IMG/VR virus record: IMGVR_UViG_2909309443_000001
DNA length: 13,370 nucleotides
Reading direction: 5' to 3' (one strand)
Source: a virus
Lineage: Duplodnaviria > Heunggongvirae > Uroviricota > Caudoviricetes
In this document: piece by piece, positions 1 through 13,370 of the stretch
Numbering within the stretch: the first letter of the stretch is position 1
Layout of the letters: each line of letters starts with the position of its first letter
Translations under genes and position numbers: made by a program
The notes under the pieces: model-generated
Database searches by the model: none
Told to the model about the DNA's origin: nothing
Seen by the model: only the letters and a program-made list of their open reading frames with translations

Positions 1-408
1 ATGGCAACTCTTAAATCAATAATGGCAATAACCACCTTAATAATTTCACTCAATGCATACGCAAACACGAATGACATTAAAACTCTTCAAAAACAACTGA
101 AACCATGGCGACCACTGGAAATCACAATAAAAGATAGCTCTCTTACCGTTGTTCTCCCTGGTAAAAAAATCACATCTGAAGCCTATAATCATTTAATTAT
201 GTCCGGTGTATGCACCCCACTTTGGACACATGACGCTCCTTCTTCATTTTTAAAAAATGTAAGTGAAATCAATATAGTTAACCAATATAAGTCTATTGGA
301 TATACCTTTGAAGACCCATTGGCCACATGCAATGAAATCGCTCCGTTAATGGAAAAACCTGCACAAACAGTGGTGTTATCCAAAACTCATACCTACACAG
401 GTAAGTAA
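1..408 (+). CDS. Hypothetical small secreted protein (135 aa) with a predicted N-terminal signal peptide
   Basis: ATG at position 1 and TAA at 406-408. The N-terminus MATLKSIMAITTLIISLNAYA has a hydrophobic core and an AxA-type cleavage site. Coding sequence is AT-rich. A hairpin terminator follows. No recognisable family. It lies outside the ogr end of the prophage, so it may be host or moron DNA. Confidence 0.5.
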   Translation: MATLKSIMAITTLIISLNAYANTNDIKTLQKQLKPWRPLEITIKDSSLTVVLPGKKITSEAYNHLIMSGVCTPLWTHDAPSSFLKNVSEINIVNQYKSIGYTFEDPLATCNEIAPLMEKPAQTVVLSKTHTYTGK

Positions 409-426
409 ATAGCTCAAATAAGATAA

Positions 427-450
427 AGCCCCTCGACTGAGGGGCTTTCT
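427..450. terminator. Bidirectional intrinsic terminator between the converging ORF 1..408 and ogr
   Basis: Stem AGCCCCTC (427-434), loop GACT, stem GAGGGGCT (439-446). A T-rich tract follows on both strands (TTCT on +, TTATCTTATTT on -). Confidence 0.6.
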
Positions 451-458
451 GCCTGTAA

Positions 459-677
459 TTACATCCACATAATTTGCTGCCCTGACGGCAACGGGTGCGG
501 CCTTACGGCGTGGACTTCTCCCGGCTTCACGATGTATCTCTGTACCGACTCATACGTGATGAACGTGGCGCTGCAATTCACGTTCTGGCACTGGTGATAA
601 CGCTCTTTTGTCGTGTCAGTGATATAGCGACTTGTACGCGCATGTGCGGCATGCTGGCATAAAGGACAATGAAACAT
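459..677 (-). CDS. ogr: Ogr, zinc-finger late-gene transcriptional activator (Ogr/Delta family), 72 aa
   Basis: Internal ATG at 677-675 gives MFHCPLCQHAAHARTSRYITDTTKERYHQCQNVNCSATFITYESVQRYIVKPGEVHAVRPHPLPSGQQIMWM, which matches my recollection of P2 Ogr including the CxxC...CxxxxC zinc finger. The longer ORF to 740 in the track is probably an upstream extension. Confidence 0.9.
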   Translation of the reverse strand: MFHCPLCQHAAHARTSRYITDTTKERYHQCQNVNCSATFITYESVQRYIVKPGEVHAVRPHPLPSGQQIMWM

Positions 678-758
678 CGCGAGCACCTCTTCCGGTTTTG
701 TTGATGGTGCTATTTTAGTTAATTTATCCTTATAAAACAAACAGATAAAATAAAAACA

Positions 759-1922
759 TCACTCATCATCTTCTGTTTCATACTCCACATCAGAAAGCCT
801 GACCTCAAGCTCCAAGGACGTCGTGAAGCCGCTATTATTCAGAAAATGTGTCACCTTAGTGATTGTCCAGTCCTGCTCGTCTATGACGCGCTTAAAACCT
901 GACACTTTGACCGGCGTTTCCGTGTAAATATCTGCCCGGCCGGTAGCCAGGCTGATGGAGAACTCTGCTACACCCCGTTGCAGTTTATCCCACTTCGCCT
1001 GAGCGGCACGCATGGCCTGTGCTTTCGTGGCATATACCGTGGTCAGGGCAAAAACGTTGTCAGCCTCACCGGCCATGTATTCACCTTCGCGCGCTTCCGG
1101 TACTTTTGGCGCTTTCTTCTGCCTGACCGGTTTCGCTTTCGGGTGCTCCAGTGCGCGCAGGTGTTTCTCTTTCTTTTTGCGTTTCAGTTTTACCTTCTGC
1201 TTTTGCGGCTTCGGGTCTTTGGTGTGAAGCCACTTTGCCGTTACGCCGGTATAGGCTCCACGGTCAGCAATCGCAAAATGGTGGCGGTCGCCGTCGCTGC
1301 GGGTTATGGTGACCTGCGGGATTTTTTTACCGCTGGCCGTCACCCCCTGCCCCGCTTTGAGAAACAACAGTTTTCCCATTTTTACCGAGACCTCACCACC
1401 GTTGCGTTCTGCAAGACGGGTCAGGAATTTCGCATCAGACTCCTGCGACTGGTCGATGTGCGGGATTTTAATTCCTGCCAGTGACGGCGCGACACTGGCT
1501 TCCAGCCTGTTACGGGAGGCTATCGCCTCAACAATCGCACCGAGCGTGGTGTCATGCCAGGAGCCTTCACGGCGGGAATTGAGCGTCCCGCGAAAATCTG
1601 CACTCCGGGCGCGGATGGTAACCACATCCGGTGCGCCCCGGTGTTCAACCTCATCAACGGTGAATTTCCCTTTGCATACCAGGGCAAAACCTTTCCAGCC
1701 GATATACACCGTCAGGACAGCGCCACGAACCGGCAGCCCGACCTGCCCGTCGGCATCGTTCAGTTCAATATCAAGCTGGTCAGCCTCAAAGCCCCGGTTA
1801 TCCGTCAGGGTCATGCTCATCAGACGGTCGCTGATATTGCCGGTAATATCCCTGCTGTCGAGCATCAGCATGTAATCCGGTGTCAGCGTACTGCCTGCAT
1901 CAAATGTCAGCGCATCCAGCAT
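759..1922 (-). CDS. D: Tail protein D (P2 gpD family), 387 aa
   Basis: 387-aa ORF, the same length as P2 gpD. It sits between U and ogr as in P2. Its ATG overlaps the U stop (TAATG). Confidence 0.88.
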   Translation of the reverse strand: MLDALTFDAGSTLTPDYMLMLDSRDITGNISDRLMSMTLTDNRGFEADQLDIELNDADGQVGLPVRGAVLTVYIGWKGFALVCKGKFTVDEVEHRGAPDVVTIRARSADFRGTLNSRREGSWHDTTLGAIVEAIASRNRLEASVAPSLAGIKIPHIDQSQESDAKFLTRLAERNGGEVSVKMGKLLFLKAGQGVTASGKKIPQVTITRSDGDRHHFAIADRGAYTGVTAKWLHTKDPKPQKQKVKLKRKKKEKHLRALEHPKAKPVRQKKAPKVPEAREGEYMAGEADNVFALTTVYATKAQAMRAAQAKWDKLQRGVAEFSISLATGRADIYTETPVKVSGFKRVIDEQDWTITKVTHFLNNSGFTTSLELEVRLSDVEYETEDDE

Positions 1923-2401
1923 TATCCCGCCCCCGTCATACCCGTGAATTTAGTCGCCATACTGCCAGCCTTACCGATGAGCGATTCCGCCTGTTTACCT
2001 ATATCGCCATAAAGCGCGGCCAGTGATTCATCAACGCGGGTAAGTGACAGCGTAAAATCAATTTTCCGGGGTGTGCCGTCTGCAAAGAAAATACTCCCTG
2101 TTTCACTCACCCTGCTGATGACATACATGCCGTAAATCATGCCGGTGCCATCCAGCAACGGCCACGCCCGGCCTTCCTCTGCCATCAGCCTGAGCGTGGT
2201 CATCGTCAGCTTGCCGCCGGTCAGTTCGGGATAAAGCACACCGGCAAGCGTGATGTTTTCCTCACCCACACCGAGAAACTGAAAGGCATCCCGTTTACCG
2301 ATACGGGAATTTGACGGCCAGCGATAATCTGATTCACGCTGCATGGTCTGGTGTGGCAGCGTCTGGCGCATAAAAACAAACATACCTAACGCGAGCATCA
2401 T
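1922..2401 (-). CDS. U: Tail protein U (P2 gpU family), 159 aa
   Basis: 159-aa ORF directly downstream of T and upstream of D, in the P2 order T-U-D. Confidence 0.88.
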   Translation of the reverse strand: MMLALGMFVFMRQTLPHQTMQRESDYRWPSNSRIGKRDAFQFLGVGEENITLAGVLYPELTGGKLTMTTLRLMAEEGRAWPLLDGTGMIYGMYVISRVSETGSIFFADGTPRKIDFTLSLTRVDESLAALYGDIGKQAESLIGKAGSMATKFTGMTGAG

Positions 2402-2415
2402 TGTTCGTCACCTCC

Positions 2416-4863
2416 TTAACCGTCATGCATCATGCTGGCACGGGCGCGCGCACGTTTATCCCGCTCGTATTTTTCGAGTGCATCCTGTAACTGGCGGTCA
2501 AGCTGTGTCCCCGGCGCAGTACCACCCGTAAGGCTGATGTGATATTCGTTTTTACTCTGGTCTACATAAGAGCGGCCAGCCGGTGCCGTGACCGGCTGAT
2601 AAGCCTGATAGCCTGCATAAGAGCTGGTCGCCGGAATATACCCACCGGTGCCATACGTGGCGGCATGAGTCCTTGCGGCGGTCTGGTCAAGTGTGTCTGA
2701 CTCTTTGTTGATAACACCGAGTTTTTCCAGTACCCAGTCAATACCGCTGCGCAGTTTGTTGAACGCATTAAGCGGCAGCATCAGCGCGTCAGCCAGTGCC
2801 TGCCCGAACATGACGCCCGTGTCACGGCAACGGTTCAGGGTGTCCCGGGTGGCTTTGACCGGGGCAATCAGGTTTTTAAACCACTGCCACGCGGCCTGTA
2901 ACTTTTCGCCCAGCCAGTCAAACACCGGCTTAAGTGGCGTGAACAGTTCCCCCACCGGCGCAAATGCCGCTTTCAGCCCTTCCACCACACCGCCAAAGAA
3001 TGCGCTGACAGGCTCCCAATATTTACGGATAAGCAACGCCCCGGCGACAATGGCGGCCACCACGGCCACAACCGGCCAGCTAATCGCCCCGATGGCCGTC
3101 ATAACAGCACTGCCAACCGTCGTGAAGATTGCCCCCATTGCGCCTGCTGCCGCGATGATGGCATTGATGCCAGTGATAACCGGCCAGGCTACGAGGCCAA
3201 TGGCACCGATGACAGCAGTCAGCGCCAGTGCACCACCGACAATGAGGCCGATGGTTGACGCCAGTGATTTGTTTTTCTGTATCCAGCCGTCGAGTTTTAA
3301 CACATACTTTGTGGCCGTCTGCGTGAGCTTACGCAGTGCGCCTTCCTGCTGGTCAAACAGGTCAGTCCCCACCGCCTCATAAGCGGACTGAAACTCCTTA
3401 AAGTCACCGCCGAGGTTGTCCTGCATGATATTTACCAGCTCGGCGGTCTTCCCGTCTGAGGCTTTAAACGCAGCGGTCAGTTTGTCCAGCTTTCCAGTTG
3501 AGGCGGCAGTCATCAGCACGGCGGCGGCTGAGCTGGCCTCCTCCCCGAAAATGGTTTTCATGTATTCAGCCTGCTGGGCAGTACCGAGCCGGTTTTTCTC
3601 AAAACTGGCCTGCATTTCTTTCAGAATGGTAAATACTGGTCGGGTGTTTCCCTTACTGTCTGAGGTTTTCACGCCAAGCTCTTTCAGTGCATCCCATGCT
3701 TTTCCCGTCGGTGCCTGCAGGCGACTTAACACGGCACGGCTTCCCGTCCCCGCCATTGAGCCTGTGATTTTTGCATCATGCAGCGCCCCGACCATTGCGG
3801 CGGTTTCTTCAATGCTGACACCGGCATTTTTTGCCACAGGTGCGGCATAGGTCAGCGCATCGCTCATGCCGTCAAAATCGGCGGCGGTTTTGTTCATCGT
3901 CATGGAGAGAACATCCCCGATATGAGCGACCTTATCGTTTGAAAGCTGAAAGGCGGATTTCATCCCCATCAGCAGGGCGGCGTTTTCTTCCATCGTGCGG
4001 CGGTTCGCCAGCGCCATATTCAGCGTGACCGGCGTTGCCGCCTGAATGGCATCAACATCCCCACCCGCTTTCGCGATGATTATCTGTGCACCGGCCGCAT
4101 CATCCGCCGAGGCGGCGGTATTGTCGCCGAGCTGGCGCGCCTGTTTGCGTAGCGCGGCCATTTCGGCGGAATCTTTTGCCACACCGAGCACGGCCTGCAA
4201 TTCTGAGTTTTTCTGCGCAAACTCATAACCGGGCATCAGCAGCTTAACTCCGGCCATCGTTCCCGCCGCCGCAATCCCCACACCGGCAGCGCCCACCGAG
4301 GCCATATTTCCGGCCAGTTCCTTGCCTGCCTGATAACGCTGTTTTACTGCGTTAAGTTTTGCCTGTTGTGCACTGACACGCGCCAGTGCGTCACGCTGAC
4401 GGTTAAGCTGTGCGGTGGTTTCACTGATACGGTTTTTCAGTCCCTGCTCATTATGTGCAAGATTGCGGGTATTAATTCCCACAGCGGCCAGTTCCCGCTG
4501 CTGGCGTTTAATGGAATCTGTCAGGCGGTTATATTTCGCCTGTAAGTCCTCCGCCGCACGCTTTGCGGATTCCAGCACTTTCGCCTGAGCACGGGTCGGA
4601 CGTTCAGTGTTTTTAAACTGTGTGGCAAGGGCTTCGGCCTCCTGCCGAGCCTTTTCAAGTGCATGACCAGTCACGGCAAGCTGTGCGCTGGTCTTGCGAA
4701 ATCCCTCAATACGGGATGCGTGACCGTTCAGCTCGCGCAGTGATTTTTGTGTTTCCCGGATATCCCCCGACAGCGACTTACTCGCTGTGCGGATGGATTT
4801 AAACGGGCGGGATGCCTGGTCAACAGCCCTGAGCAATACCTGTAATTTTACATTGTTACTCAT
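2416..4863 (-). CDS. T: Tail tape measure protein T (P2 gpT family), 815 aa
   Basis: 815-aa ORF, the same length as P2 gpT. Ala/Gly-rich with coiled-coil N-terminal part and hydrophobic central segments typical of tape measure proteins. The E' remnant stop overlaps its start. Confidence 0.9.
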   Translation of the reverse strand: MSNNVKLQVLLRAVDQASRPFKSIRTASKSLSGDIRETQKSLRELNGHASRIEGFRKTSAQLAVTGHALEKARQEAEALATQFKNTERPTRAQAKVLESAKRAAEDLQAKYNRLTDSIKRQQRELAAVGINTRNLAHNEQGLKNRISETTAQLNRQRDALARVSAQQAKLNAVKQRYQAGKELAGNMASVGAAGVGIAAAGTMAGVKLLMPGYEFAQKNSELQAVLGVAKDSAEMAALRKQARQLGDNTAASADDAAGAQIIIAKAGGDVDAIQAATPVTLNMALANRRTMEENAALLMGMKSAFQLSNDKVAHIGDVLSMTMNKTAADFDGMSDALTYAAPVAKNAGVSIEETAAMVGALHDAKITGSMAGTGSRAVLSRLQAPTGKAWDALKELGVKTSDSKGNTRPVFTILKEMQASFEKNRLGTAQQAEYMKTIFGEEASSAAAVLMTAASTGKLDKLTAAFKASDGKTAELVNIMQDNLGGDFKEFQSAYEAVGTDLFDQQEGALRKLTQTATKYVLKLDGWIQKNKSLASTIGLIVGGALALTAVIGAIGLVAWPVITGINAIIAAAGAMGAIFTTVGSAVMTAIGAISWPVVAVVAAIVAGALLIRKYWEPVSAFFGGVVEGLKAAFAPVGELFTPLKPVFDWLGEKLQAAWQWFKNLIAPVKATRDTLNRCRDTGVMFGQALADALMLPLNAFNKLRSGIDWVLEKLGVINKESDTLDQTAARTHAATYGTGGYIPATSSYAGYQAYQPVTAPAGRSYVDQSKNEYHISLTGGTAPGTQLDRQLQDALEKYERDKRARARASMMHDG

Positions 4864-5135
4864 TCGTGTTTCCGCTTCGCCGGAGCGCCTTTTCGCGCCA
4901 TGTGATGAGTTCGGTCAGGCTCATGGGATACAGTTCTGATGGCGGCCAGTGAAATATCACTGCCACATCCGCCATCAGGTCATCGACCGAGAGATTTTTC
5001 GGGAACGTTACTGCACCGAGTTCGGCGACAAAAAACCGACCACCTTACCGGCCAGCGCCACAAGGTCAGGCAGTTCCAGCGCGGCGACTTCCTGCTCGGT
5101 CAGCATCGGTGCCGTCATGCGCGGCAGCACCTTAA
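4856..5135 (-). pseudogene. E: 5'-truncated remnant of tail chaperone genes E and E+E', with the -1 frameshift module intact
   Basis: My translation of the minus strand gives ...VLPRMTAPMLTEQEVAALELPDLVALAGKVVGFLSPNSVQ* ending at TAA 5010-5008. An in-frame TAG at 5211-5209 lies upstream and there is no ATG for a full-length E. GGT TTT TTG at 5037-5029 carries the T TTT TTG slippery heptamer. The -1 frame is open from 5035 to the TAA at 4858-4856, overlapping the T start. Confidence 0.6.
5029..5035 (-). other. Programmed -1 ribosomal frameshift slippery heptamer T TTT TTG of the E/E' tail chaperone pair
   Basis: Plus strand CAAAAAA at 5029-5035. On the minus strand it is in frame as TTT TTG within the E remnant, and the -1 frame continues open for about 57 codons. 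Confidence 0.6.
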
Positions 5136-5136
5136 G

Positions 5137-5298
5137 CCGGAGAACATCGGGTCGCTGGGCGATATTGAGAAAGTGGCAAAGGTCTTTGTCCGCAATGAGC
5201 TTATCCCGCTACAGGACAGGATTCGGGAAATAAACGGCTGGCTCGGTCAGGAGGTCATCCGCTTTAAAAACTACTCACTGGACACTGACAACGGCTGA
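5137..5298 (+). pseudogene. Q: 3' fragment of portal gene Q (C-terminal ~54 codons)
   Basis: Plus-frame translation ...PENIGSLGDIEKVAKVFVRNELIPLQDRIREINGWLGQEVIRFKNYSLDTDNG* ends at TGA 5296-5298, followed by a strong terminator and then cos. This matches P2, where Q is read toward cos. The upstream part of ORF 4939..5298 in the track is antisense to E/E', so that ORF is a chimera. Confidence 0.5.
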
Positions 5299-5303
5299 AC
5301 ATC

Positions 5304-5325
5304 GCCGCCTGCGGGCGGCTTTTTT
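5304..5325 (+). terminator. Rho-independent terminator of the Q (portal) transcript
   Basis: Perfect GC stem GCCGCC (5304-5309), loop TGCG, stem GGCGGC (5314-5319), then a T6 run (5320-5325). It is oriented for plus-strand transcripts only. Confidence 0.65.
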
Positions 5326-5467
5326 ACACCCCGTCATCACGCCCTCACACGCTCACCACCGCACAAAACACCCCGCAGACACACCAACGCCCCGGCGCAC
5401 AATCTAAACGCCATCACGACGCGCTCAGACGCAGAAAAAATAAAATCAGCACCACCGCCAGCGCGCA

Positions 5468-5486
5468 GTGCTTTCCCCGCCTCGCC
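5468..5486. other. cos site: 19-nt cohesive-end sequence of the P2/186/P4 family
   Basis: Plus strand GTGCTTTCCCCGCCTCGCC is the reverse complement of GGCGAGGCGGGGAAAGCAC, which I recall as the shared 19-nt cohesive end of P2, 186 and P4. Its position between the A-distal cargo gene and the Q 3' end matches P2 genome ends. Confidence 0.7.
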
Positions 5487-5637
5487 CGCCCGCTTCATGG
5501 GTCGGTTTGAATGCAGTTGAATTACAACTACCAAACCAAGCAATCCCTACTATTACGCAGAAAATGCATACTGAAATACCTCGTGCAAATTGATGCAGCT
5601 AAGTATGCATAGGTTTTATGCCTCAACGTATACGTTA

Positions 5638-7470
5638 TCAAACAGAGCCCTGTTCAAAAACAGTATCAAAATATGGTAGGAGAGGATAAGCACACAGAAA
5701 GAAAATCAGGATGCATGCATATGTCGTTGTTTCATCGTAACAAGCATTAGTATATAAATTACCATGTGCTAATTTATGTCTTAAGGTTGCCCCACTCTTT
5801 CTGTTAAAAAGAACATCGATAGTCAAAACAAGATTTTTAGAAAAGATACTTTCCAAATCATCTCTGCATTTATCTAGAAGCTGAGAAATACTTGTTGACT
5901 CCTCTAATCCCTTATCCAAATATCTAGTAGCATCCTTTCCACTAAGCTCATAATAATAACGAACCATACCTTCCATTTGTGGTATTAAAAGATAAGCTGC
6001 ACTGATGTAATCTCCCTGCCATAATTTGTAAAAGCCCAAATTAAAAATCTCCCTAAACTCCGGCTTGACAATTGGACTAGTTGTAACCAATTTAACGAAT
6101 GTTGACAACGTCAAGCCATGTTCTTGAGAAAGTACATAGCGAGCAGGTTCAAAGACACCGTTTACAAAAATCTTATGAGTAATCTCGAAATTTCTTAGAT
6201 ATTGATCAATAACAACATCATCACTCATATCCTTTTTATTATCCAACGGCGGGATTGTATATATCTTACGCCCACTCTCATCATTAATTTCTGTTCCAAC
6301 AAAACTAGAGAATAAACTTTTTTCTGATAATCTTAAAACTTGTTCCCTCATGCTTTCAATATTTTCAATCGGTGTTTCACTCATTAAAACTTTGAATATA
6401 TCGGGCAAAGAACGCCCCGTCAGTTTTTTTTCACTTTCAGCAACCAAGTCACTAATATCAATAGAATGGCTTAAAGTGACATATTCACTCCTTACTTCTT
6501 CTCTCAAATTAGCAAGTTGTTCCTTTAAATCTTCTATCTGTTGGCTATCACCACCGTACTGTCTTAATTCAGAGATAGCTGTTCTTAACCAAGAGATCTT
6601 ACCCATATTATCAGGTCGTTCTGTTGCAACTTTAATAGTAATATTTGCAGATGCCAGTTTACATCTCTTGGCACGTTCATACTCACCATTTTTTTCATAA
6701 ATAACTGCACTTGTCATATAAAGTGATTTTACAGCATCATAATATTTTTTATCTTTATGCTGCTCAGCCATCTTCTCAGCATTTTCCGCATACTGCAGAT
6801 TATACCCATCAAAATCACGCACCATAAACCAAGTCAAATTATTGAAACCTTCAAAGATTAATCTTTCATTTTGAATACTATAAAGAGAATGAATGGCATT
6901 TTTAATCGCCATGTTTCCTTCTGATTTTCTAGGGTAGACCATTTTATTAATGTGCAAAGCCCTAGCAATATAATCACGAGCAAAAATAAAGCAATTTAAA
7001 TCACTTTCATCCATGCTTTCGTTTTTTATTATTGGCTTTTCAATTGCTATATTTAGCATTTCAGCATAGGAATCAATTGCTTTAATTGCCACGTCTTTAT
7101 TTTTCCGATTATTACACCAAACAACATCATATATTCTTGATAACAAAAATGGATTGGTTATTTTTTGAGAAACATATAAAAGACAGTCATTCACCTGCTC
7201 ATCAAAATCTTCAGGCAATATTGATCTTTTATTACCCCAAATCATTTGGGGTTCAAATGATGGAGTGTTGTTAACAACTTGCAAATTGAAACTATATAGC
7301 ATACCAAAAAGAGATGCTAATTTTTTCTCTTTGGGGTTTTCTGATGACTCAGCAATCCCATCCAGATATTTTTTTATTTTATGTGCATGAAATGTAACTG
7401 GTATATGCATAAAAACACTATAATCTAGTGTTTCAAGCTCTTCCCTTGTAAGAACAAAGATATCATTCAT
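5638..7470 (-). CDS. AT-rich cargo protein (~610 aa) at the tin/old position; candidate anti-phage protein with a C-terminal HEPN-like Rx4H motif
   Basis: Long minus ORF whose base composition is far more AT-rich than the flanking phage genes. ATG at 7470-7468 is preceded by AAAGGTGAAAACG (GGTG 6 nt upstream). The track's longer ORF to 7575 starts at a TTG only 15 nt after the A stop. C-terminus carries ...ATLRHKLAHGN... (R-x4-H). No Walker A motif. No recognisable family from sequence alone. Confidence 0.75.
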   Translation of the reverse strand: MNDIFVLTREELETLDYSVFMHIPVTFHAHKIKKYLDGIAESSENPKEKKLASLFGMLYSFNLQVVNNTPSFEPQMIWGNKRSILPEDFDEQVNDCLLYVSQKITNPFLLSRIYDVVWCNNRKNKDVAIKAIDSYAEMLNIAIEKPIIKNESMDESDLNCFIFARDYIARALHINKMVYPRKSEGNMAIKNAIHSLYSIQNERLIFEGFNNLTWFMVRDFDGYNLQYAENAEKMAEQHKDKKYYDAVKSLYMTSAVIYEKNGEYERAKRCKLASANITIKVATERPDNMGKISWLRTAISELRQYGGDSQQIEDLKEQLANLREEVRSEYVTLSHSIDISDLVAESEKKLTGRSLPDIFKVLMSETPIENIESMREQVLRLSEKSLFSSFVGTEINDESGRKIYTIPPLDNKKDMSDDVVIDQYLRNFEITHKIFVNGVFEPARYVLSQEHGLTLSTFVKLVTTSPIVKPEFREIFNLGFYKLWQGDYISAAYLLIPQMEGMVRYYYELSGKDATRYLDKGLEESTSISQLLDKCRDDLESIFSKNLVLTIDVLFNRKSGATLRHKLAHGNLYTNACYDETTTYACILIFFLCAYPLLPYFDTVFEQGSV

Positions 7471-7589: not shown

Positions 7590-9872
7590 TTATTGCTCTG
7601 AATAACAATAAAACCAACTCCACTCATCAGCGACCGGATACGTAAATTTTTTCCCGTTGTAATTTACGATCGCGCCACGCGCCAGCGCCTCAAGCTCCCA
7701 TCGCTGCGGCCTGATACCGTTCTGAGCAAGGTCAACGCGGATACGGGTAATTTGCATTCTTTCCGACCGGGTCAGTCTGGCCGATGGCGCTATTTCATGC
7801 GGTTTTAACGGTCTTCCGTTTCTTTGCTGACGGTTTGGTCTTCTCAGGCCGTGTTTTAATGCGCCCCTGAGCGCCCTCACGACCTCCGGGTCATTCCATT
7901 CGATAACACCGTCATCAACCAGATTAAGCACTGCTGCGGCGTGCTCAGAAGGCGTGGGAGCCGGTAACGAAGTATCACCACCAGTGAGCTTTCCACAGTT
8001 ATTGACAGGACTCCGAGGCGCGGCGATGCCGCTTTTTAAAGTCAAAGGCTCAACGACCGGAACTTTCGGCACAATGCGCCAGTCCGTCGTTCTGGTGATA
8101 TGAATATGACGCGCGCCGAGATGCGGCGCGTAAATGCCGACCACTCTCTCGACTTCTTCCTCGTACTCGTTAACGTCATCCGACGGGCTACGGGCAACCC
8201 TGACAGTCTGACAATCGCGCGGGACATTTGCCCCACCCTGCGCGCTGATATACAACGCAAAATCACCACTGTCTGCAGCAGCGCGAGCAGCCTCGACGCG
8301 TTCGTCAAACTCATCAGCAATGCTGACGCCGCGAGGCAATTTGCGTAGTTCACGGTAAGCCCCCATTGTCGGCAGACCAACCGTTTTAAATTGCGGAATG
8401 CGCCACGTTGACGCCCATGCGGTAACAGCCGCAGCTGTGTCTTTCAGCGGCCTACCGGTATCATTATCGAGCTGACCATCCAGTGCATAGCCGTCGATGT
8501 TTTTTGAGATGTATTTCGCGATATATCCCGCAGCACCGCCCCGGTTAAGGTGTTTTGCCTGAAAACGGTTTCGCGCAGCTCCTCTTTCGTCGCCATCCTC
8601 TTTGAGCGCGTAGCGACGCATGATTTCAATAATCTGGTTACGCTGGCGTGGATTACAAAAAAGCATCATATGCCAGTGCGGCGTTCCGTCGTGGTGTGGC
8701 TCGACGACACGCAAACCGTAGACCTGTAAATCATTATCCTTGAATGCCGTGCGCATCAGGCTCCAGATATGGCAGAGATAACGCTGCGCATCCTTTGGAT
8801 TAAATGCCTCATCGTTCCAGCCGTGATTTAGCTGGACGGTTTTACTTTCGCCTTTTCCGACCTGACGTGTCGGGTGATACTTTGACGGCGCGGTAAGCGT
8901 GATAAACATCCCCACATCACCCTCTGCGGCGGCGTAACGCTCAATACCGGCAATGGTGTTCATCAGCTCCATCCGGCGAATTTCAGGATTAGAAATACTG
9001 CCCATCACCTTACTGATAAGGTCGATGCGTTCGCCGGTTTCCCTGTTTTCAAGGTCACACGATTTAAGAAATTCCAGATTTGCCTGGCGGCGTGCACGCA
9101 CATCACGAATGGCATGTTTACTGGCATAAGGTGAACGGTCTTTATTGACCTCCCCGACAGCAATCAGTAACGCCTCATGCCAGCGCATACGCTGGCCTTT
9201 AAGCTGACTAATCCACCACTCATCGTTAAACAGGCGGGCAATGGCAGAATATGCCTGCCTCGTGGTCATCTGTCCTTTACGGTATTTTTTCCAGTAGAGC
9301 GGGGAAATATTGAAAGCACGTGCAGCGCCAGCAACATGACCATAGAGGTGAGCCTGCGCCTCATCCGTAAACAGCGATTCTTTTTCGCCATGCGCATCCA
9401 CCCAGGCATCGCAGAGTTCCTCATACATAATGAAAAGCTGCGATGAGATACGGGCGGCAAACTTTTTCAGCTCCTTATCATTCATCCCCGGCAGACGCGC
9501 ATAATGGTCACGCTCTGCCAGAAACAGCAACGACGCGTCGGTGTTCATTTCATGGCGCTGATTCACGCGCTCAATGCGCGGCCATAAACGACGCTGAAAA
9601 GTGGATGTGAGGAAATAAAACCCGTGCACCGGGCTTTTATTGCGCCGGATGTAGTCATAGCGTGAAGTAAACAGCGAGCGCAAAAAGTAAGGCAGGCGGT
9701 TAATCGTGGATAAAACACCTTGCACCTGACGCATCTCGTCACGTGTAAGGGGTCTTTCGCGCCCGACGGCCTCGCGTGGCGCGTTCCATGCATAAGCACC
9801 GGTAAACGCCTTACCGGTGCCTGCAGCAAATGCTGACGGAGGGACAAAACGCCCGGAGGCTTTAACGGCCAT
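7590..9872 (-). CDS. A: Replication initiation endonuclease A (P2 gpA, rolling-circle initiator), ~760 aa
   Basis: First ATG at 9872-9870 gives MAVKASGRFVPPSAFAAGTGKAFTGAYAWNAPREAVGRERPLTRDEMRQVQGVL..., a length and N-terminus consistent with P2 A. The track's 774-aa version starts at a TTG. It follows orf83/B as in P2. Confidence 0.88.
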   Translation of the reverse strand: MAVKASGRFVPPSAFAAGTGKAFTGAYAWNAPREAVGRERPLTRDEMRQVQGVLSTINRLPYFLRSLFTSRYDYIRRNKSPVHGFYFLTSTFQRRLWPRIERVNQRHEMNTDASLLFLAERDHYARLPGMNDKELKKFAARISSQLFIMYEELCDAWVDAHGEKESLFTDEAQAHLYGHVAGAARAFNISPLYWKKYRKGQMTTRQAYSAIARLFNDEWWISQLKGQRMRWHEALLIAVGEVNKDRSPYASKHAIRDVRARRQANLEFLKSCDLENRETGERIDLISKVMGSISNPEIRRMELMNTIAGIERYAAAEGDVGMFITLTAPSKYHPTRQVGKGESKTVQLNHGWNDEAFNPKDAQRYLCHIWSLMRTAFKDNDLQVYGLRVVEPHHDGTPHWHMMLFCNPRQRNQIIEIMRRYALKEDGDERGAARNRFQAKHLNRGGAAGYIAKYISKNIDGYALDGQLDNDTGRPLKDTAAAVTAWASTWRIPQFKTVGLPTMGAYRELRKLPRGVSIADEFDERVEAARAAADSGDFALYISAQGGANVPRDCQTVRVARSPSDDVNEYEEEVERVVGIYAPHLGARHIHITRTTDWRIVPKVPVVEPLTLKSGIAAPRSPVNNCGKLTGGDTSLPAPTPSEHAAAVLNLVDDGVIEWNDPEVVRALRGALKHGLRRPNRQQRNGRPLKPHEIAPSARLTRSERMQITRIRVDLAQNGIRPQRWELEALARGAIVNYNGKKFTYPVADEWSWFYCYSEQ

Positions 9873-10137
9873 ATGAGCCAAAAGCCTCTGAACAACGCCT
9901 GCTGAGTTGCTCAACCTGCGCGTTTAAATCAGCAAAAGACTTTGCGCTTCCGGTCAGAATATCGTGATGCATCAGGCCGGAAACAAGCTGGCTTAATTTC
10001 GGGTAATAACCAACCACCGCCAGCCATTCCTGACCGGCGTTTTTACCGCTTTCCGCTCTCTTTTTCTCGTGGAGAATAAACTGGAAGCTGTCACTGGTAA
10101 CGACATAACGTTCGCCAATTTCAATACGAATACTCAT
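9862..10137 (-). CDS. Small hypothetical protein, P2 orf83-like (91 aa)
   Basis: ATG at 10137-10135 overlaps the stop of the upstream ORF (ATGA). Positioned directly upstream of A. Confidence 0.65.
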   Translation of the reverse strand: MSIRIEIGERYVVTSDSFQFILHEKKRAESGKNAGQEWLAVVGYYPKLSQLVSGLMHHDILTGSAKSFADLNAQVEQLSRRCSEAFGSYGR

Positions 10138-10358
10138 GCCGTTCTCCGGTAATGTTTGTTTTTTGCTTCAAAGACTGACTGACAGGAAACACAACGCGTG
10201 GCTGACGGATAAGCCGCACGACGGGCAGCAGGTATTGGCGCGTCACACTCTTCGCAAACCAGCGCAGAAGCACCGCAATGTTTTACCCTTGCCGCGTTAA
10301 TCTGGCGCTCCAGTAATTCAGCCTGTTGTTCCTGAATAAAATCTACGTTGTCCGGCAT
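10134..10358 (-). CDS. TraR/DksA-type C4 zinc-finger protein, P2 orf82-like (74 aa)
   Basis: Four cysteines arranged CxxxxxxxCxxC...CxxC (CGASALVCEEC...CVSC), typical of small phage TraR/DksA-family zinc-finger proteins. ATG at 10358-10356. Confidence 0.65.
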   Translation of the reverse strand: MPDNVDFIQEQQAELLERQINAARVKHCGASALVCEECDAPIPAARRAAYPSATRCVSCQSVFEAKNKHYRRTA

Positions 10359-10360
10359 TA

Positions 10361-10660
10361 TCAGTTCCTTTTATCGTTAAGTTTCCTGGATACATCAGCG
10401 CAATAACTGGCAAGTTCTGTCGTTAATTTTGTCAGTTCATCCACTGAGGAAATTTGCTTGTGGAATACAGCGCGTTTAACAAGTAAATTGACCACATCAG
10501 ACAGGAGGTTTAATTCATTCTGATAAATCGCGATAACAGATTCAGTGATGTCGCGTTTTTCTTTATCAAGACAAAGTTGAATAAGAGACAAATCGCCATT
10601 TTTCATAACGGCGATTTTTAAGGCGTTATTCAGTAATACAACTGAATGAGAACAGGACAT
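10361..10660 (-). CDS. Small hypothetical protein, P2 orf81-like (99 aa from ATG)
   Basis: The track's ORF starts at a TTG (10663). The next codon is ATG (10660-10658) and overlaps the stop of the upstream ORF (ATGA), suggesting translational coupling. Confidence 0.6.
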   Translation of the reverse strand: MSCSHSVVLLNNALKIAVMKNGDLSLIQLCLDKEKRDITESVIAIYQNELNLLSDVVNLLVKRAVFHKQISSVDELTKLTTELASYCADVSRKLNDKRN

Positions 10661-10884
10661 CAAAGTACCTCCCCGCGAGACAATCCGATATTGTGAAATT
10701 TTTCCGACTCCTGACTGAGCAGCTCGACTATCTCCACGCGGGATAACTCCGCCTTTGTGATGTGGCTAATCATGGCGTCAAGATGAGAAGAAAAGCGCGT
10801 CGCCGCGTCGGCCTGTGCTTCGGTTCTGGCCTGTTGCAGCAGTAATGCGTATTTACCGCACTGATTTTCAGAAACTGTATGCAT
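10660..10884 (-). CDS. Small hypothetical protein, P2 orf80-like (74 aa)
   Basis: ATG at 10884-10882 preceded by GGAGAAAGTC (GGAG about 8 nt upstream). Lies between B and the orf81-like gene as in P2. Confidence 0.6.
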
Positions 10885-10947
10885 GACTTTCTCCAGGCAA
10901 AAAGAAGCCCCGCACGATTAAGTGCGTTAAAAACTCTGGTTAATTAC

Positions 10948-11448
10948 TTAATGCAGATATTGCTCTGGTTTTACCGACGTCAGAATTGTCGGTGCATACT
11001 CAAACAGGCTGAATAATTCACGTAATGCACGGAATAAAGCATCACGCCAGTAACATGACTCTTCATTAATTCGCCAGTATGGCTGATTAAATTCTTTTTC
11101 AGTCAATCCGGCATGCATAAATAAAGTACGACGCTGACTGACTGTTAAAAAACTAATATATGCATACTCACTTGCGCCAACCTGACGGCGTTTTGAGAAT
11201 GCCCCACGCAGTTCATCAATTGCACAAACCAGCCGTTCACGTTCGACGTCGTTCATTTCTTCAAAACGCATCGTTGCGTGACGTTGTTTTAACTGCGCAT
11301 GAAAGCAAACTGTTAGCCGTTCGCGCTCCATCATCTGATTATAATAATCACATGTATCCTGCCAGCGAGGGACGGCAAGATGCTTACCAATTATCCGGCG
11401 CATAGCTGCTGGCTGTTTTTCGACGAGATTGAGCGTCATCACTGTCAT
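10948..11448 (-). CDS. B: Replication protein B (P2 gpB, helicase-loader-like), 166 aa
   Basis: 166-aa ORF, the same length as P2 B, beginning MTVMTLNLVEKQPAAMRRIIGKHLAVPRWQD.... Its ATG overlaps the stop of the preceding small ORF (ATGA). Confidence 0.85.
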   Translation of the reverse strand: MTVMTLNLVEKQPAAMRRIIGKHLAVPRWQDTCDYYNQMMERERLTVCFHAQLKQRHATMRFEEMNDVERERLVCAIDELRGAFSKRRQVGASEYAYISFLTVSQRRTLFMHAGLTEKEFNQPYWRINEESCYWRDALFRALRELFSLFEYAPTILTSVKPEQYLH

Positions 11449-11615
11449 TTCCAGACCCTCCGGCTTTTCAGAAAGGTCAGAGCCTTTTTTAACGGACTCT
11501 GTTTTTTGGTGCGGATAATGATTCCCTTGCGACCCTTCCCGTGGGTGATGGTGAAGTCAATCGCCCTGGGGCTTTCGTTACGCAATAACTGAGCAATACA
11601 ACGCGGCTCATTCAT
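11445..11615 (-). CDS. Small hypothetical protein, P2 orf78-like (56 aa from the internal ATG)
   Basis: ATG at 11615-11613 lies just after the cox stop. The track's longer version from 11642 would overlap the cox 3' end. Position matches the small ORF between cox and B in P2. Confidence 0.45.
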   Translation of the reverse strand: MNEPRCIAQLLRNESPRAIDFTITHGKGRKGIIIRTKKQSPLKKALTFLKSRRVWK

Positions 11616-11617
11616 AA

Positions 11618-11890
11618 TCACAACCCCATCCACAAAAGCCATGCATCACGCTGTTCAACCGGTCGGTTATAAAACGCCTCACGTACAGCGCGATTAAACT
11701 CAGGAATGAAAACCCATTTTTCACCGGCACGAGCCTTCGGTTTGCAAGGATCACGCAATTCAATAATTGGTAATTTATTTGCCTTCACCATTTCACTGAC
11801 GGCTGTCTTTGGCTTCCCTAATAAATCAGCAAATTTATCCACATGAACCGCATCAAGCGGATACTGAATCACATAATTTTCAGCGTCCAT
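11618..11890 (-). CDS. cox: Cox, excisionase and repressor of the lysogenic promoter (P2 Cox family), 90 aa
   Basis: ...ARAGEKWVFIPEFNRAVREAFYNRPVEQRDAWLLWMGL resembles the P2 Cox C-terminus as I recall it. ATG at 11890-11888 is preceded by GAGGGT about 9 nt upstream. It is divergent from C. Confidence 0.8.
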   Translation of the reverse strand: MDAENYVIQYPLDAVHVDKFADLLGKPKTAVSEMVKANKLPIIELRDPCKPKARAGEKWVFIPEFNRAVREAFYNRPVEQRDAWLLWMGL

Positions 11891-11905
11891 ATATGGTACC
11901 CTCAT

Positions 11906-12026
11906 AGGATCCAGCCCTTTCTAAACCACTCAAAACCGTTTAGACGCTGGTTTATTCTCAAATCAATGGAACCTATATAGGTTCCAGTTTTGAGGGAATT
12001 TAGTCCCTATATAGGCACCATGTCAA
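11906..12026. promoter_or_regulatory. Divergent early control region between cox and C (Pe/Pc promoters and operators)
   Basis: 121-bp intergenic region between divergent C and cox. Contains a perfect 18-bp palindrome GGAACCTATATAGGTTCC (11968-11985) and a second CCTATATAGG copy (12006-12015), each with a TATA-rich core suitable for -10 elements. Confidence 0.6.
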
Positions 12027-12320
12027 ATGAAATTAAGCGAAAAGATTAAGGCCTTGCGTGAGGCTGAAGGGCTAAGCCAATCAAAATTCTGTGAAATCAT
12101 AGAGTTACCGCTAAGCACACTTAAAAAATATGAAGGAGGAAACTTTGAACCCGGTGGCACAGCTTTGCTAAAAATCACTATGCATCCCACATTCCAAAAA
12201 TATGCTCTATGGCTTATGACAGATAAAACCGCGCCGGACGCAGGACAAATCGCACCGGCTCTCGCGCACATTGGGCCAGAGTCAACAGAGTCCAACCACT
12301 CCGCGAAAAGGATTGGCTAA
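12027..12320 (+). CDS. C: Immunity repressor C (P2 C family), 97 aa
   Basis: Small ORF divergent from cox and upstream of int, beginning MKLSEKIKALREAEGLSQSKFCEIIELPLSTLKKYEGG..., consistent with a small HTH repressor. The ...GQIAPALAH... segment resembles P2 C as I recall it. Confidence 0.8.
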   Translation: MKLSEKIKALREAEGLSQSKFCEIIELPLSTLKKYEGGNFEPGGTALLKITMHPTFQKYALWLMTDKTAPDAGQIAPALAHIGPESTESNHSAKRIG

Positions 12321-12389
12321 CTCTATATAAAGATTACATTTTCACCATTTGCTACCAAGATGGTGAATACAGCGCCGGAGGGCTTTCTT

Positions 12390-13370
12390 ATGGCAATTAA
12401 GAAGCTCGATGATGGTCGCTATGAAGTGGACATTAGACCTCGCGGTCGCGACGGAAAACGCATCCGCAGGAAATTCGAAAGAAAAGCTGAAGCACTAGCA
12501 TTTGAGCGATACACAATCGCCAATGCCAGTCAGAAAGAATGGGGAGGCCAGCGAGCAGACCGCCGGACTTTGAGTGAGTTGCTGGACATCTGGTGGAAAT
12601 ATCACGGGCAAAACCACGAGCATGGAACAAAAGAGTTTAATCATCTACTCAAAACCATCAGCGGCATAGGTGATATACCAGTGAGCAGGATGAGCAAAAG
12701 GGCTTTGATGGATTATCGTTCCATGCGACTACGTGATGGTATCAGTGCCGCAACGATAAACCGTGACATGTACCGATTATCCGGCATGTTCACAAAATTA
12801 ATTCAATTGGATGAATTTTCCGGGCAACACCCAATTCACGGACTGCCACCACTGGCGGAGGCCAACCCTGAAATGACGTTCCTGGAAAAAGCAGAAATCG
12901 AAAAACTGTTAAATGTTTTGGCTGGTGATGACTTACTTGTCGCGCTTTTATGTCTGAGCACTGGAGGAAGATGGACGGAAGTTGCCACGCTAAAACCAGC
13001 ACAGATTACAAATTGCAGGGTTACCTTCCTGAAAACCAAAAACGGTAAAAAGCGAACCGTGCCGATTTCTGAGGAACTGGAGAAAAAAGTTAAAGAGGAG
13101 GCCAGCGCCAAATTATTCAAAGTTGATTATGAGAAATTTTGCGGGATTTTACGCAGAGTGAAACCTGATATACCACCCAATCAGGCAACCCACATCCTGC
13201 GGCATACATTCGCAAGCCATTTCATGATGAATGGGGGCAATATAATCGCACTGCAACAGATTCTGGGACATGCGAGCATTCAGCAGACGATGGCCTATGC
13301 GCACCTTGCGCCTGACTATCTGCAAAATGCCGTCGCTCTGAATCCACTAAAGGGCGGAGTGACGTTATAA
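12390..13370 (+). CDS. int: Tyrosine integrase (P2 Int family), 326 aa from the second ATG
   Basis: MAIKKLDDGRYEVDIRPRGRDGKRIRRKF... matches the P2 integrase N-terminus as I recall it. C-terminal region has the HxLRHT...Y catalytic pattern (ATHILRHTFASHF...MAYAHLAP). GGAGGG lies 8 nt upstream of ATG 12390. An alternative ATG is at 12360. Stop TAA is at 13368-13370, the window end. Confidence 0.9.
   Translation: MAIKKLDDGRYEVDIRPRGRDGKRIRRKFERKAEALAFERYTIANASQKEWGGQRADRRTLSELLDIWWKYHGQNHEHGTKEFNHLLKTISGIGDIPVSRMSKRALMDYRSMRLRDGISAATINRDMYRLSGMFTKLIQLDEFSGQHPIHGLPPLAEANPEMTFLEKAEIEKLLNVLAGDDLLVALLCLSTGGRWTEVATLKPAQITNCRVTFLKTKNGKKRTVPISEELEKKVKEEASAKLFKVDYEKFCGILRRVKPDIPPNQATHILRHTFASHFMMNGGNIIALQQILGHASIQQTMAYAHLAPDYLQNAVALNPLKGGVTL

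Follow-up and report, generated by a model that had tools for sequence, protein, structure and literature searches.

Mobilisation of defective prophages by other phages has already been published, the P2 family included. Judged by its gene content, the closest published functional precedent for the element analysed here would be Sp13 of E. coli O157:H7 Sakai, a P2-like prophage that, like the element, is without head-formation and DNA-packaging genes and has kept integration, regulation and replication functions. Sp13 excises, replicates and yields DNase-protected DNA (Asadulghani et al. 2009, PMC2669165). However, Sp13 is about 21 kb long, carries a P4 epsilon-like gene and is inducible by mitomycin, and none of these properties was seen in the element. 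Cosmids built on P2 and P4 are circular replicons with a single cos that are cut and packaged by P2 terminase in trans, as the element would be, though they are engineered multicopy plasmids, whereas the element is an integrated single copy needing its own derepression, excision and replication. P2 terminase cuts at a 55-bp cos and prefers closed monomeric circles (as given in PMC2231350), and the natural flanking context of cos raises packaging efficiency (PMC9594776).

Phage satellites offer a further comparison. P4 and the element both have a 55-bp cos and an activator of the Ogr/Delta family, and both would depend on virions of the P2 type; P4-like satellites (11.6 kb, versus 13.7 kb for the element) also carry defence cargo next to cos (PMC9122126). 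However, P4 replicates with an alpha primase-helicase replicon and ori/crr, where the element has A and B of P2, and sid, psu, epsilon and the P4-type integrase and immunity genes were not found in the element by Pfam and PHROGs searches. The likeness to P4 raised in the original prediction is limited, among sequence features, to cos and the activator. The cos-type SaPIs (SaPIbov5) are, like the element, chromosomal islands with the cos of a helper; they are packaged by the helper terminase, and genome length relative to the capsid limits efficiency (PMC6893505). Unlike the element, they form conserved, widespread families with helper-sensing repressors, and their sequence and host are different. 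Of the general hallmarks of satellites, an integrase/excision module and a replication module of its own and a helper-compatible packaging signal are present in the element, and a conserved family across unrelated hosts was not found in the large collections searched.

The window, which is the whole stretch of 13,370 nt that was analysed, is an exact substring of the closed E. coli chromosome CP024266.1; it begins with the ATG that opens the first prophage gene, on the fieF side, and ends with the int stop codon. The P2-like (Peduovirus) prophage to which it belongs is 13,695 bp long in CP024266 and is inserted between fieF and cpxP. The window is flanked there by the att sites, which are direct repeats of 47 nt that differ at one position (G/T) and are spaced 13,695 bp from each other (L007, 4854-4900 and 18549-18595; int type specific for fieF-cpxP), and attL lies 117 bp past the int stop at the window end. 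P2 (NC_001895) was used as the reference and the fieF-cpxP prophage of E. coli Ecol_867 as the full-length relative. The gene order, 19-nt cohesive end and ori of the element are those of both P2 and Ecol_867, and Ecol_867 in addition matches the element in all 55 positions of the cos core, in the type of int, C and cox and in the cargo gene. P2 has head, terminase, lysis, baseplate, fibre, sheath and tube genes and late promoters that are absent from the element. The features identified are listed below with coordinates and strand.

1..408, plus: accessory gene between ogr and attR, 135 aa (phrog_3807, E 1.6e-59)
459..677, minus: ogr, late-gene transcriptional activator (Pfam Ogr_Delta; 72/72 identical to P2 Ogr)
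759..1922, minus: tail gene D, intact (385/387 identical to P2 gpD; blastn)
1922..2401, minus: tail gene U, intact (158/159 identical to P2 gpU)
2416..4863, minus: tape-measure gene T, intact (801/815 identical to P2 gpT)
4856..5135, minus: 3' remnant of E and E+E', P2 19857-19578 (colinear blastn block and P2 annotation)
4939-5298: junction ORF, 119 aa, in which 3' codons of Q are fused in frame to antisense E
5134..5135: deletion junction, P2 19578 joined to P2 351 (blastn and alignment to P2)
5134..5298, plus: Q remnant, last 54 codons plus stop (165 nt; match to portal phrog_68 in its C-terminal part only)
5304..5329, plus: tQ, Rho-independent terminator (terminator scan; corresponds to P2 160-181)
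5461..5515, minus: cos core common to P2 and P4, 55 bp (52/55 identical to P2)
5638..7470, minus: cargo gene in the cos-adjacent hotspot, 610 aa (DUF7380 domain, Pfam)
7590..9872, minus: replication initiator gene A with ori (Pfam Phage_GPA; 735/761 identical to P2 gpA)
9862..10884, minus: early genes orf83, orf82, orf81 and orf80, intact (protein comparison)
10948..11448, minus: replication gene B (165/166 identical to P2 gpB)
11618..11890, minus: cox, excision directionality factor and Pc repressor (Pfam Phage_Cox)
12027..12320, plus: C, immunity repressor (HTH_3 domain)
12390..13370, plus: tyrosine integrase specific for the fieF-cpxP site (Pfam Int_N and Phage_integrase)

Colinear homology to P2 was found by blastn in blocks at 425-5135, 5134-5530 and 7620-11616, with 87-97% identity. 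Window 425-5135 corresponds to P2 24288-19578 and holds ogr with its terminator, D, U, T, E' and the 3' portion of E. Window 5134-5486 corresponds to P2 351-1 (last 54 Q codons, tQ and cos), 5468-5530 to the right end of P2, and 7620-11616 to P2 30286-26290, from A to orf78/B. Across 11617-13370, which holds the immunity and integration genes, the window is only distantly related to P2. DNA identity to P2 is 96-97% over ogr-D-U-T and from B to A, and the 81 nt around the ori nick site (around 8014) are as in P2 except at two outer positions. In the other region, Int is identical to that of Ecol_867 at 325 of 326 positions (169/338 for P2 Int) and C at 96 of 97 (42/99 for P2 C), and Cox, which is not of the P2 type (36/94), is the same as in Ecol_867 at 90 of 90.

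P2 coordinates 352-19577, a total of 19.2 kb, are missing from the element, and this loss is its sole structural departure from a genome of the P2 type. The deletion removed most of Q, all of P, O, N, M, L, X and the lysis genes, together with R, S, V, W, J, I, H, G, the Z/fun region, FI, FII and the 5' part of E. The element thereby lost most of the portal gene and the genes for both subunits of the terminase, for scaffold, capsid and head completion, for lysis, and for baseplate, fibres, sheath and tube. Every Ogr-dependent late promoter lies in the deleted P2 interval, including pF (P2 17555-17628), the late promoter of T, U and D. No capsid, terminase or lysis ORF was found in the window (ORF list, blastn against P2, Pfam). 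The original prediction of a prophage lacking all capsid genes is thus borne out for capsid and terminase, although the structural genes are not all gone, as T, U and D of the tail are undamaged and E is still represented by a 3' fragment. From its gene content, the window is a defective derivative of a P2-like prophage that cannot form virions autonomously.

In protein comparisons with P2 and Ecol_867, no kept gene was shortened or interrupted by a stop, which agrees with the earlier statement that int, cox, C, B, A and ogr were retained. As no further damage is visible in the element, the deletion event looks recent. The orphan genes T, U and D now lie downstream of the cargo gene and the early operon, in the same orientation. 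The only strong terminator in between, tQ (5304-5329), points the opposite way to T, U and D, and a weaker minus-strand terminator-like hairpin is located between the cargo gene and T at 5056-5035. Read-through expression of the orphan tail genes is conceivable.

The junction (32-mer GCGCGGCAGCACCTTAAGCCGGAGAACATCGG) includes a 2-bp (AA) microhomology, indicative of illegitimate deletion. The 119-aa junction ORF served as a unique marker and was located on four contigs (L007, L008, L009 and L014). The same junction was found in CP024266, in the draft genome GCA_039690535 and in SRA runs SRR29077645 and ERR1937332, and these four independent assemblies are 0-2 SNPs apart over 13.4 kb, with identical chromosomal flanks where comparable (L007 versus L008). 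As an identical junction was present in independent assemblies, the deletion is genuine and inherited in one clone, and the structure of the element identifies it as the likely product of one illegitimate deletion.

A single copy of GGCGAGGCGGGGAAAGCAC, matching at every position, was found in the window, on the minus strand at 5468-5486; with up to 3 mismatches allowed, 0.01 chance matches would be expected in the window. This is the 19-nt cohesive end, identical to cosL/cosR of P2 NC_001895, and both its intactness and the presence of the Q 3' end and A-side flanks, as originally claimed, were confirmed by the blocks matching P2 351-1 and the P2 right end. The 55-bp core was placed through an alignment of the window with the joined genome ends of P2, P4 and 186. 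Phage 186 shares two of its three substitutions relative to P2; the third, an A-to-C change that gives CATTCAAACC, recurs in Ecol_867 and vB_EcoM-569R9 and is known from prophage-derived sequences only. The exact 55-mer of the window was also found in the full-length Ecol_867 prophage and in the phage record vB_EcoM-569R9. The flanks of cos are kept over 334 bp on the Q side, and the cargo side is contiguous. Over 5468-5637, which reaches from the cohesive end up to the cargo gene, the window and Ecol_867 do not differ, and the Q-side flank (5299-5467) has five substitutions relative to Ecol_867, the nearest 35 nt from the cohesive end. Mutation of the cos-flanking recognition region, which had been named in advance as an argument against packaging, was therefore not seen relative to the full-length prophage. 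As far as sequence goes, cos is predicted to be functionally intact with its three core substitutions.

The Q stop and the cargo gene are 340 bp apart, and cos sits between them at ~150-170 bp from each. With cos only ~170 bp from the Q stop and the cargo gene, deletions that spare the cargo gene would almost inevitably spare cos, and survival of cos between the Q stop and a kept cargo gene needs no selection for packaging. A 68-aa ORF (5337-5543, minus strand) extends across cos and matches phrog_17350, annotated as a hypothetical protein in several phage records. However, cleavage at cos would split this ORF in virion DNA, and it is probably not a real gene.

The cargo gene occupies the position next to cos that is a hotspot for anti-phage genes in P2-like phages (PMC9122126), and the same gene is present in the complete Ecol_867 prophage. 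Its product matches the PADLOC defence candidate PDC-S39 (E 1e-84) and phrog_5183 and gives a weak, sub-threshold Pfam match to DUF4209, a domain placed in the HEPN superfamily (PMC3710099). At window position 7034, CP024266 has G, giving Pro146 in the cargo protein, where L008, L009 and Ecol_867 have A, giving Leu. The Leu146Pro change appears derived and non-conservative, and might impair the candidate defence protein in the CP024266 genome. No Pfam match was obtained for the 135-aa product of the accessory gene (1..408). A gene of the phrog_3807 type adjoins ogr in 21 of 5426 E. coli genomes, and one encoding a 135-aa protein was also found in Yersinia phages P37 and GMS190.

A possible signal of an attP-type junction was seen in a public assembly. 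Logan contig L009, from run ERR1937332, is 13,722 bp long (13,695 + 27), and both of its ends consist of the 27-nt perfectly repeated part of att. At att position 20, attR has G and attL has T in the window lineage, and other lysogens have T in both copies. The mismatch at this position places strand exchange within the 27-nt right-hand part. In Logan, contigs are assembled with k=31 and singleton k-mers are discarded (PMC12424806), so a repeat of only 27 nt would not be expected to interrupt a contig by itself. A k=31 graph was therefore simulated from the CP024266 sequence under several scenarios. The integrated copy only gave an unbroken contig, addition of an empty attB gave 13,728 bp, a perfect 47-nt repeat gave 13,708 bp, mixed attR G and T variants gave 13,705 bp, and addition of an int-side/att/ogr-side (attP-type) junction gave 13,722 bp with the ends observed. 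Six scenarios were simulated, including attB plus attP, and L009 was reproduced only when an attP-type junction was included. As a control, contigs of intact phages of the same att type from other runs were found to start with the expected 30-nt (k-1) overlap; in other lysogens, T in both att copies accounts for contigs broken with this overlap (starts of L021 and L022).

From the assembly graph, we infer that at least two reads of ERR1937332 joined the two ends of the element, and apparently this also occurred in a second run, from which an identical contig was obtained. Such a junction would indicate either an excised circle or tandem copies. Unbroken Logan contigs had also been considered as a sign that no helper was present, and this argument was dropped, as bubble popping could mask a diverged second prophage.

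The monomer of 13.7 kb amounts to 41% of the length of P2 and 118% of that of P4, and a dimer to 82% of P2 and to 93-95% of the smallest P2-like genomes in the searches. Plasmids of 5-10 kb carrying cos are packaged as monomers (PMC2231350), P2vir1 transduces small cosmids at frequencies of up to 0.035 per plaque-forming unit (PMC9594776), and a head of P2 size can, with low efficiency, be filled by three P4 genomes (PMC6893505). Size is therefore no bar to packaging, and the concern that a ~13 kb monomer might be too small is weakened by the packaging of small cos plasmids and by cosmid transduction, though the stability and infectivity of a particle with a monomer in an underfilled head are uncertain.

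Regulation presents real obstacles. Repressors of the P2 type are not cleaved in the SOS response, and P2-type prophages are classically non-inducible (PMC2669165). As the C protein differs in type from P2 C, the element is expected to be heteroimmune to P2, and a heteroimmune helper alone would not derepress it. The A protein of P2 acts in cis, and thus A supplied by a helper would not replicate the element. The main obstacles to mobilisation are therefore regulatory and not a matter of size. No anti-repressor, capsid-size or helper-interference gene was found in the window by Pfam and PHROGs searches and inspection of ORFs of at least 50 aa, each of which could be attributed to P2, to the cargo or to the 135-aa accessory gene.

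Searches for the exact junction in 5426 complete E. coli genomes, INPHARED (50,697 phage records), PLSDB plasmids, IMG/VR viral contigs and JGI metagenomes gave no match; NZ_CP024266 itself is outside the RefSeq genome set. The genomes that carry the junction are all near-identical and belong to one clone. A full Q-cos was carried by 1526 of the 5426 genomes. When the whole window was used as the query, 22 records matched more than 62% of it in one place, and every one of them was a compacted P2 derivative. Compacted P2 prophages thus occur in no fewer than 0.4% of complete E. coli genomes. Altogether, at least five compacted derivatives were found, and four mini-elements of 10.9-14.8 kb are at fieF-cpxP. 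The other compacted elements examined are as follows.

W13-16 (NZ_CP080235): P2 607-19402 deleted, at a different integration site (junction at L002 10298-10325)
26561: P2 2119-23190 deleted, 12,892 bp (junction at L023 11197)
isolateD group, 7 genomes: P2 2118-21148 deleted, 14,823 bp (junction at L024 5643)
L017/L020: P2 1507-23187 deleted plus a small second deletion, about 10.9 kb (junction at L017 7189)
DC71: many deletions, with A truncated

The cos was kept in all of these, including DC71 in which the capacity for replication is gone, and each compacted-element junction is limited to 1-7 near-identical genomes. Several of the mini-P2 elements of 10.9-14.8 kb retain ogr and intact early genes together with cos. 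W13-16, with deletion endpoints 175-255 bp from those of the window, represents an independent event, and is the only one of the 5426 complete genomes with E adjoining the 3' end of Q. A common origin of such near-coincident endpoints with the window element was ruled out, as the breakpoints 351/19578 are unique.

The 26561 and isolateD elements have a common P-side endpoint, with kept sequence starting ACCCGTTCTGGTCGGGT, and 26561 and L017 have a common D-side endpoint, ending ...AGCCTGTTACGGGAGGCTA. Elements with common half-junctions are 2-3% diverged and joined to different partners, and their chromosomal flanks differ by 0.5-0.8%. The common endpoints abut small inverted repeats and plausibly represent deletion hot spots; they could also be derived by descent from a common mobile mini-element. 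Strain 26561 and the window lineage differ in their mini-elements although their flanks are near-identical. The fieF and cpxP flanks of DC71 (L012) and isolateD (L024) are identical, with no difference in 4.6 kb, and DC71 has many deletions and isolateD one large deletion at the same fieF-cpxP site.

A 14.8-kb record that starts at cos, vB_EcoM-640R3, was considered as a possible packaged mini-phage and was rejected, as it is a partial genome with late genes. P2-like segments (T/E or portal/cos, 97-99% identical) were also seen on large conjugative plasmids from Klebsiella, Salmonella, Citrobacter and E. coli (e.g. NZ_CP025141, CP067666 and NZ_CP019203).

Given the anatomy of the element, the integrity of its parts, its clonal distribution and the attP-type assembly signature, it is quite probable that this is a recently truncated, clone-restricted P2-like prophage that could in principle be mobilised by a helper and is not an evolved satellite. 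By analogy, it would be comparable to a natural cosmid or a helper-mobilisable defective prophage. If established P2/P4 biology applies, derepression would allow its own Cox and Int, acting on the att repeats, to excise a circle of 13.7 kb, which its own cis-acting A together with B would replicate from ori. The Ogr of the element would turn on late promoters, the element itself having no late promoter or useful virion gene, and a P2-type helper, either co-resident or infecting, would supply terminase and virions and cut cos. The packaged DNA would then be either a dimer or a monomer that underfills the head. The proposal that the element could be packaged by a helper in the manner of a satellite stands as far as the cis- and trans-acting parts are concerned, which are intact, though its restriction to one clone and the absence of P4-like helper-manipulation genes from the window argue against a satellite-like status. 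Neither its gene content nor its distribution in the collections searched showed a sign of adaptation to a satellite lifestyle or of success in it, and the clonal pattern of the compacted elements fits sporadic decay with selection for immunity and cargo, and does not fit a successful mobile family.

A possible but doubtful alternative is that the element is an immobile remnant, kept for the benefit that homoimmunity and the PDC-S39 candidate bring to the host, in which the mobility genes are undecayed but never act. The location of a cargo gene with a PADLOC match in a known cos-adjacent defence hotspot (PMC9122126) and the clonal distribution are in keeping with this, as is the classical non-inducibility of P2-type prophages (PMC2669165), and the retention of cos is accounted for by its position. 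However, the ends of L009 indicate a junction that needs either Int-mediated recombination or tandem copies, and Sp13, a comparable P2-like remnant, excises and replicates. The derived Leu146Pro change further argues against strong purifying selection on the cargo gene in CP024266.

It appears improbable that the element is actively helper-dependent, a nascent P2-derived satellite that excises and replicates by itself, is packaged via cos, spreads its defence cargo horizontally and may use Ogr on the late genes of a resident P2-like prophage. All of the modules needed are intact, the L009 contig ends point to an attP-type junction, other mini-P2 elements with cos, ogr and intact early genes exist, and potential helpers are common, given the number of genomes with a full Q-cos. 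Two pairs of elements each have one identical endpoint despite 2-3% divergence and differing flanks, and the window lineage and 26561 carry different mini-elements within near-identical flanks. However, each junction is found in just 1-7 near-identical genomes, and that of the window was absent from the IMG/VR, JGI metagenome, phage and plasmid collections searched. Anti-repressor, capsid-size and helper-interference genes are missing from the window, T, U and D would be ballast of no use to a satellite, DC71 retains cos with A truncated and no replication capacity, and the common endpoints at small inverted repeats may be deletion hot spots.

On the strength of the attP-type junction, the compacted derivatives, of which there are at least five, and the half-junctions common to diverged elements, a broader reading can be drawn, for which the likelihood is low. 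Here, P2 prophages with late-gene deletions that have kept cos, ogr, ori/A/B and int/cox would constitute a recurrent helper-dependent class of incipient satellites derived from their helpers, which excise, replicate, are packaged via cos by P2-like phages, whether resident or incoming, and exchange cos-adjacent defence cargo. An assembly or binning artefact that joined two parts of a normal prophage into a capsid-less arrangement can for practical purposes be discounted, as the junction is identical in CP024266, GCA_039690535 and the two SRA assemblies, which differ by 0-2 SNPs over 13.4 kb, and has a clean 2-bp microhomology.

As a recently truncated prophage restricted to one clone, the element presently provides a clean, datable case of prophage decay, in which one deletion took the lethal or costly functions and left immunity, defence cargo and mobility functions intact. 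If it is mobilised by a helper, a candidate anti-phage gene would be moved between strains by an element that encodes no capsid protein, and this would be a natural instance of the first step from phage to satellite, which is usually just postulated.
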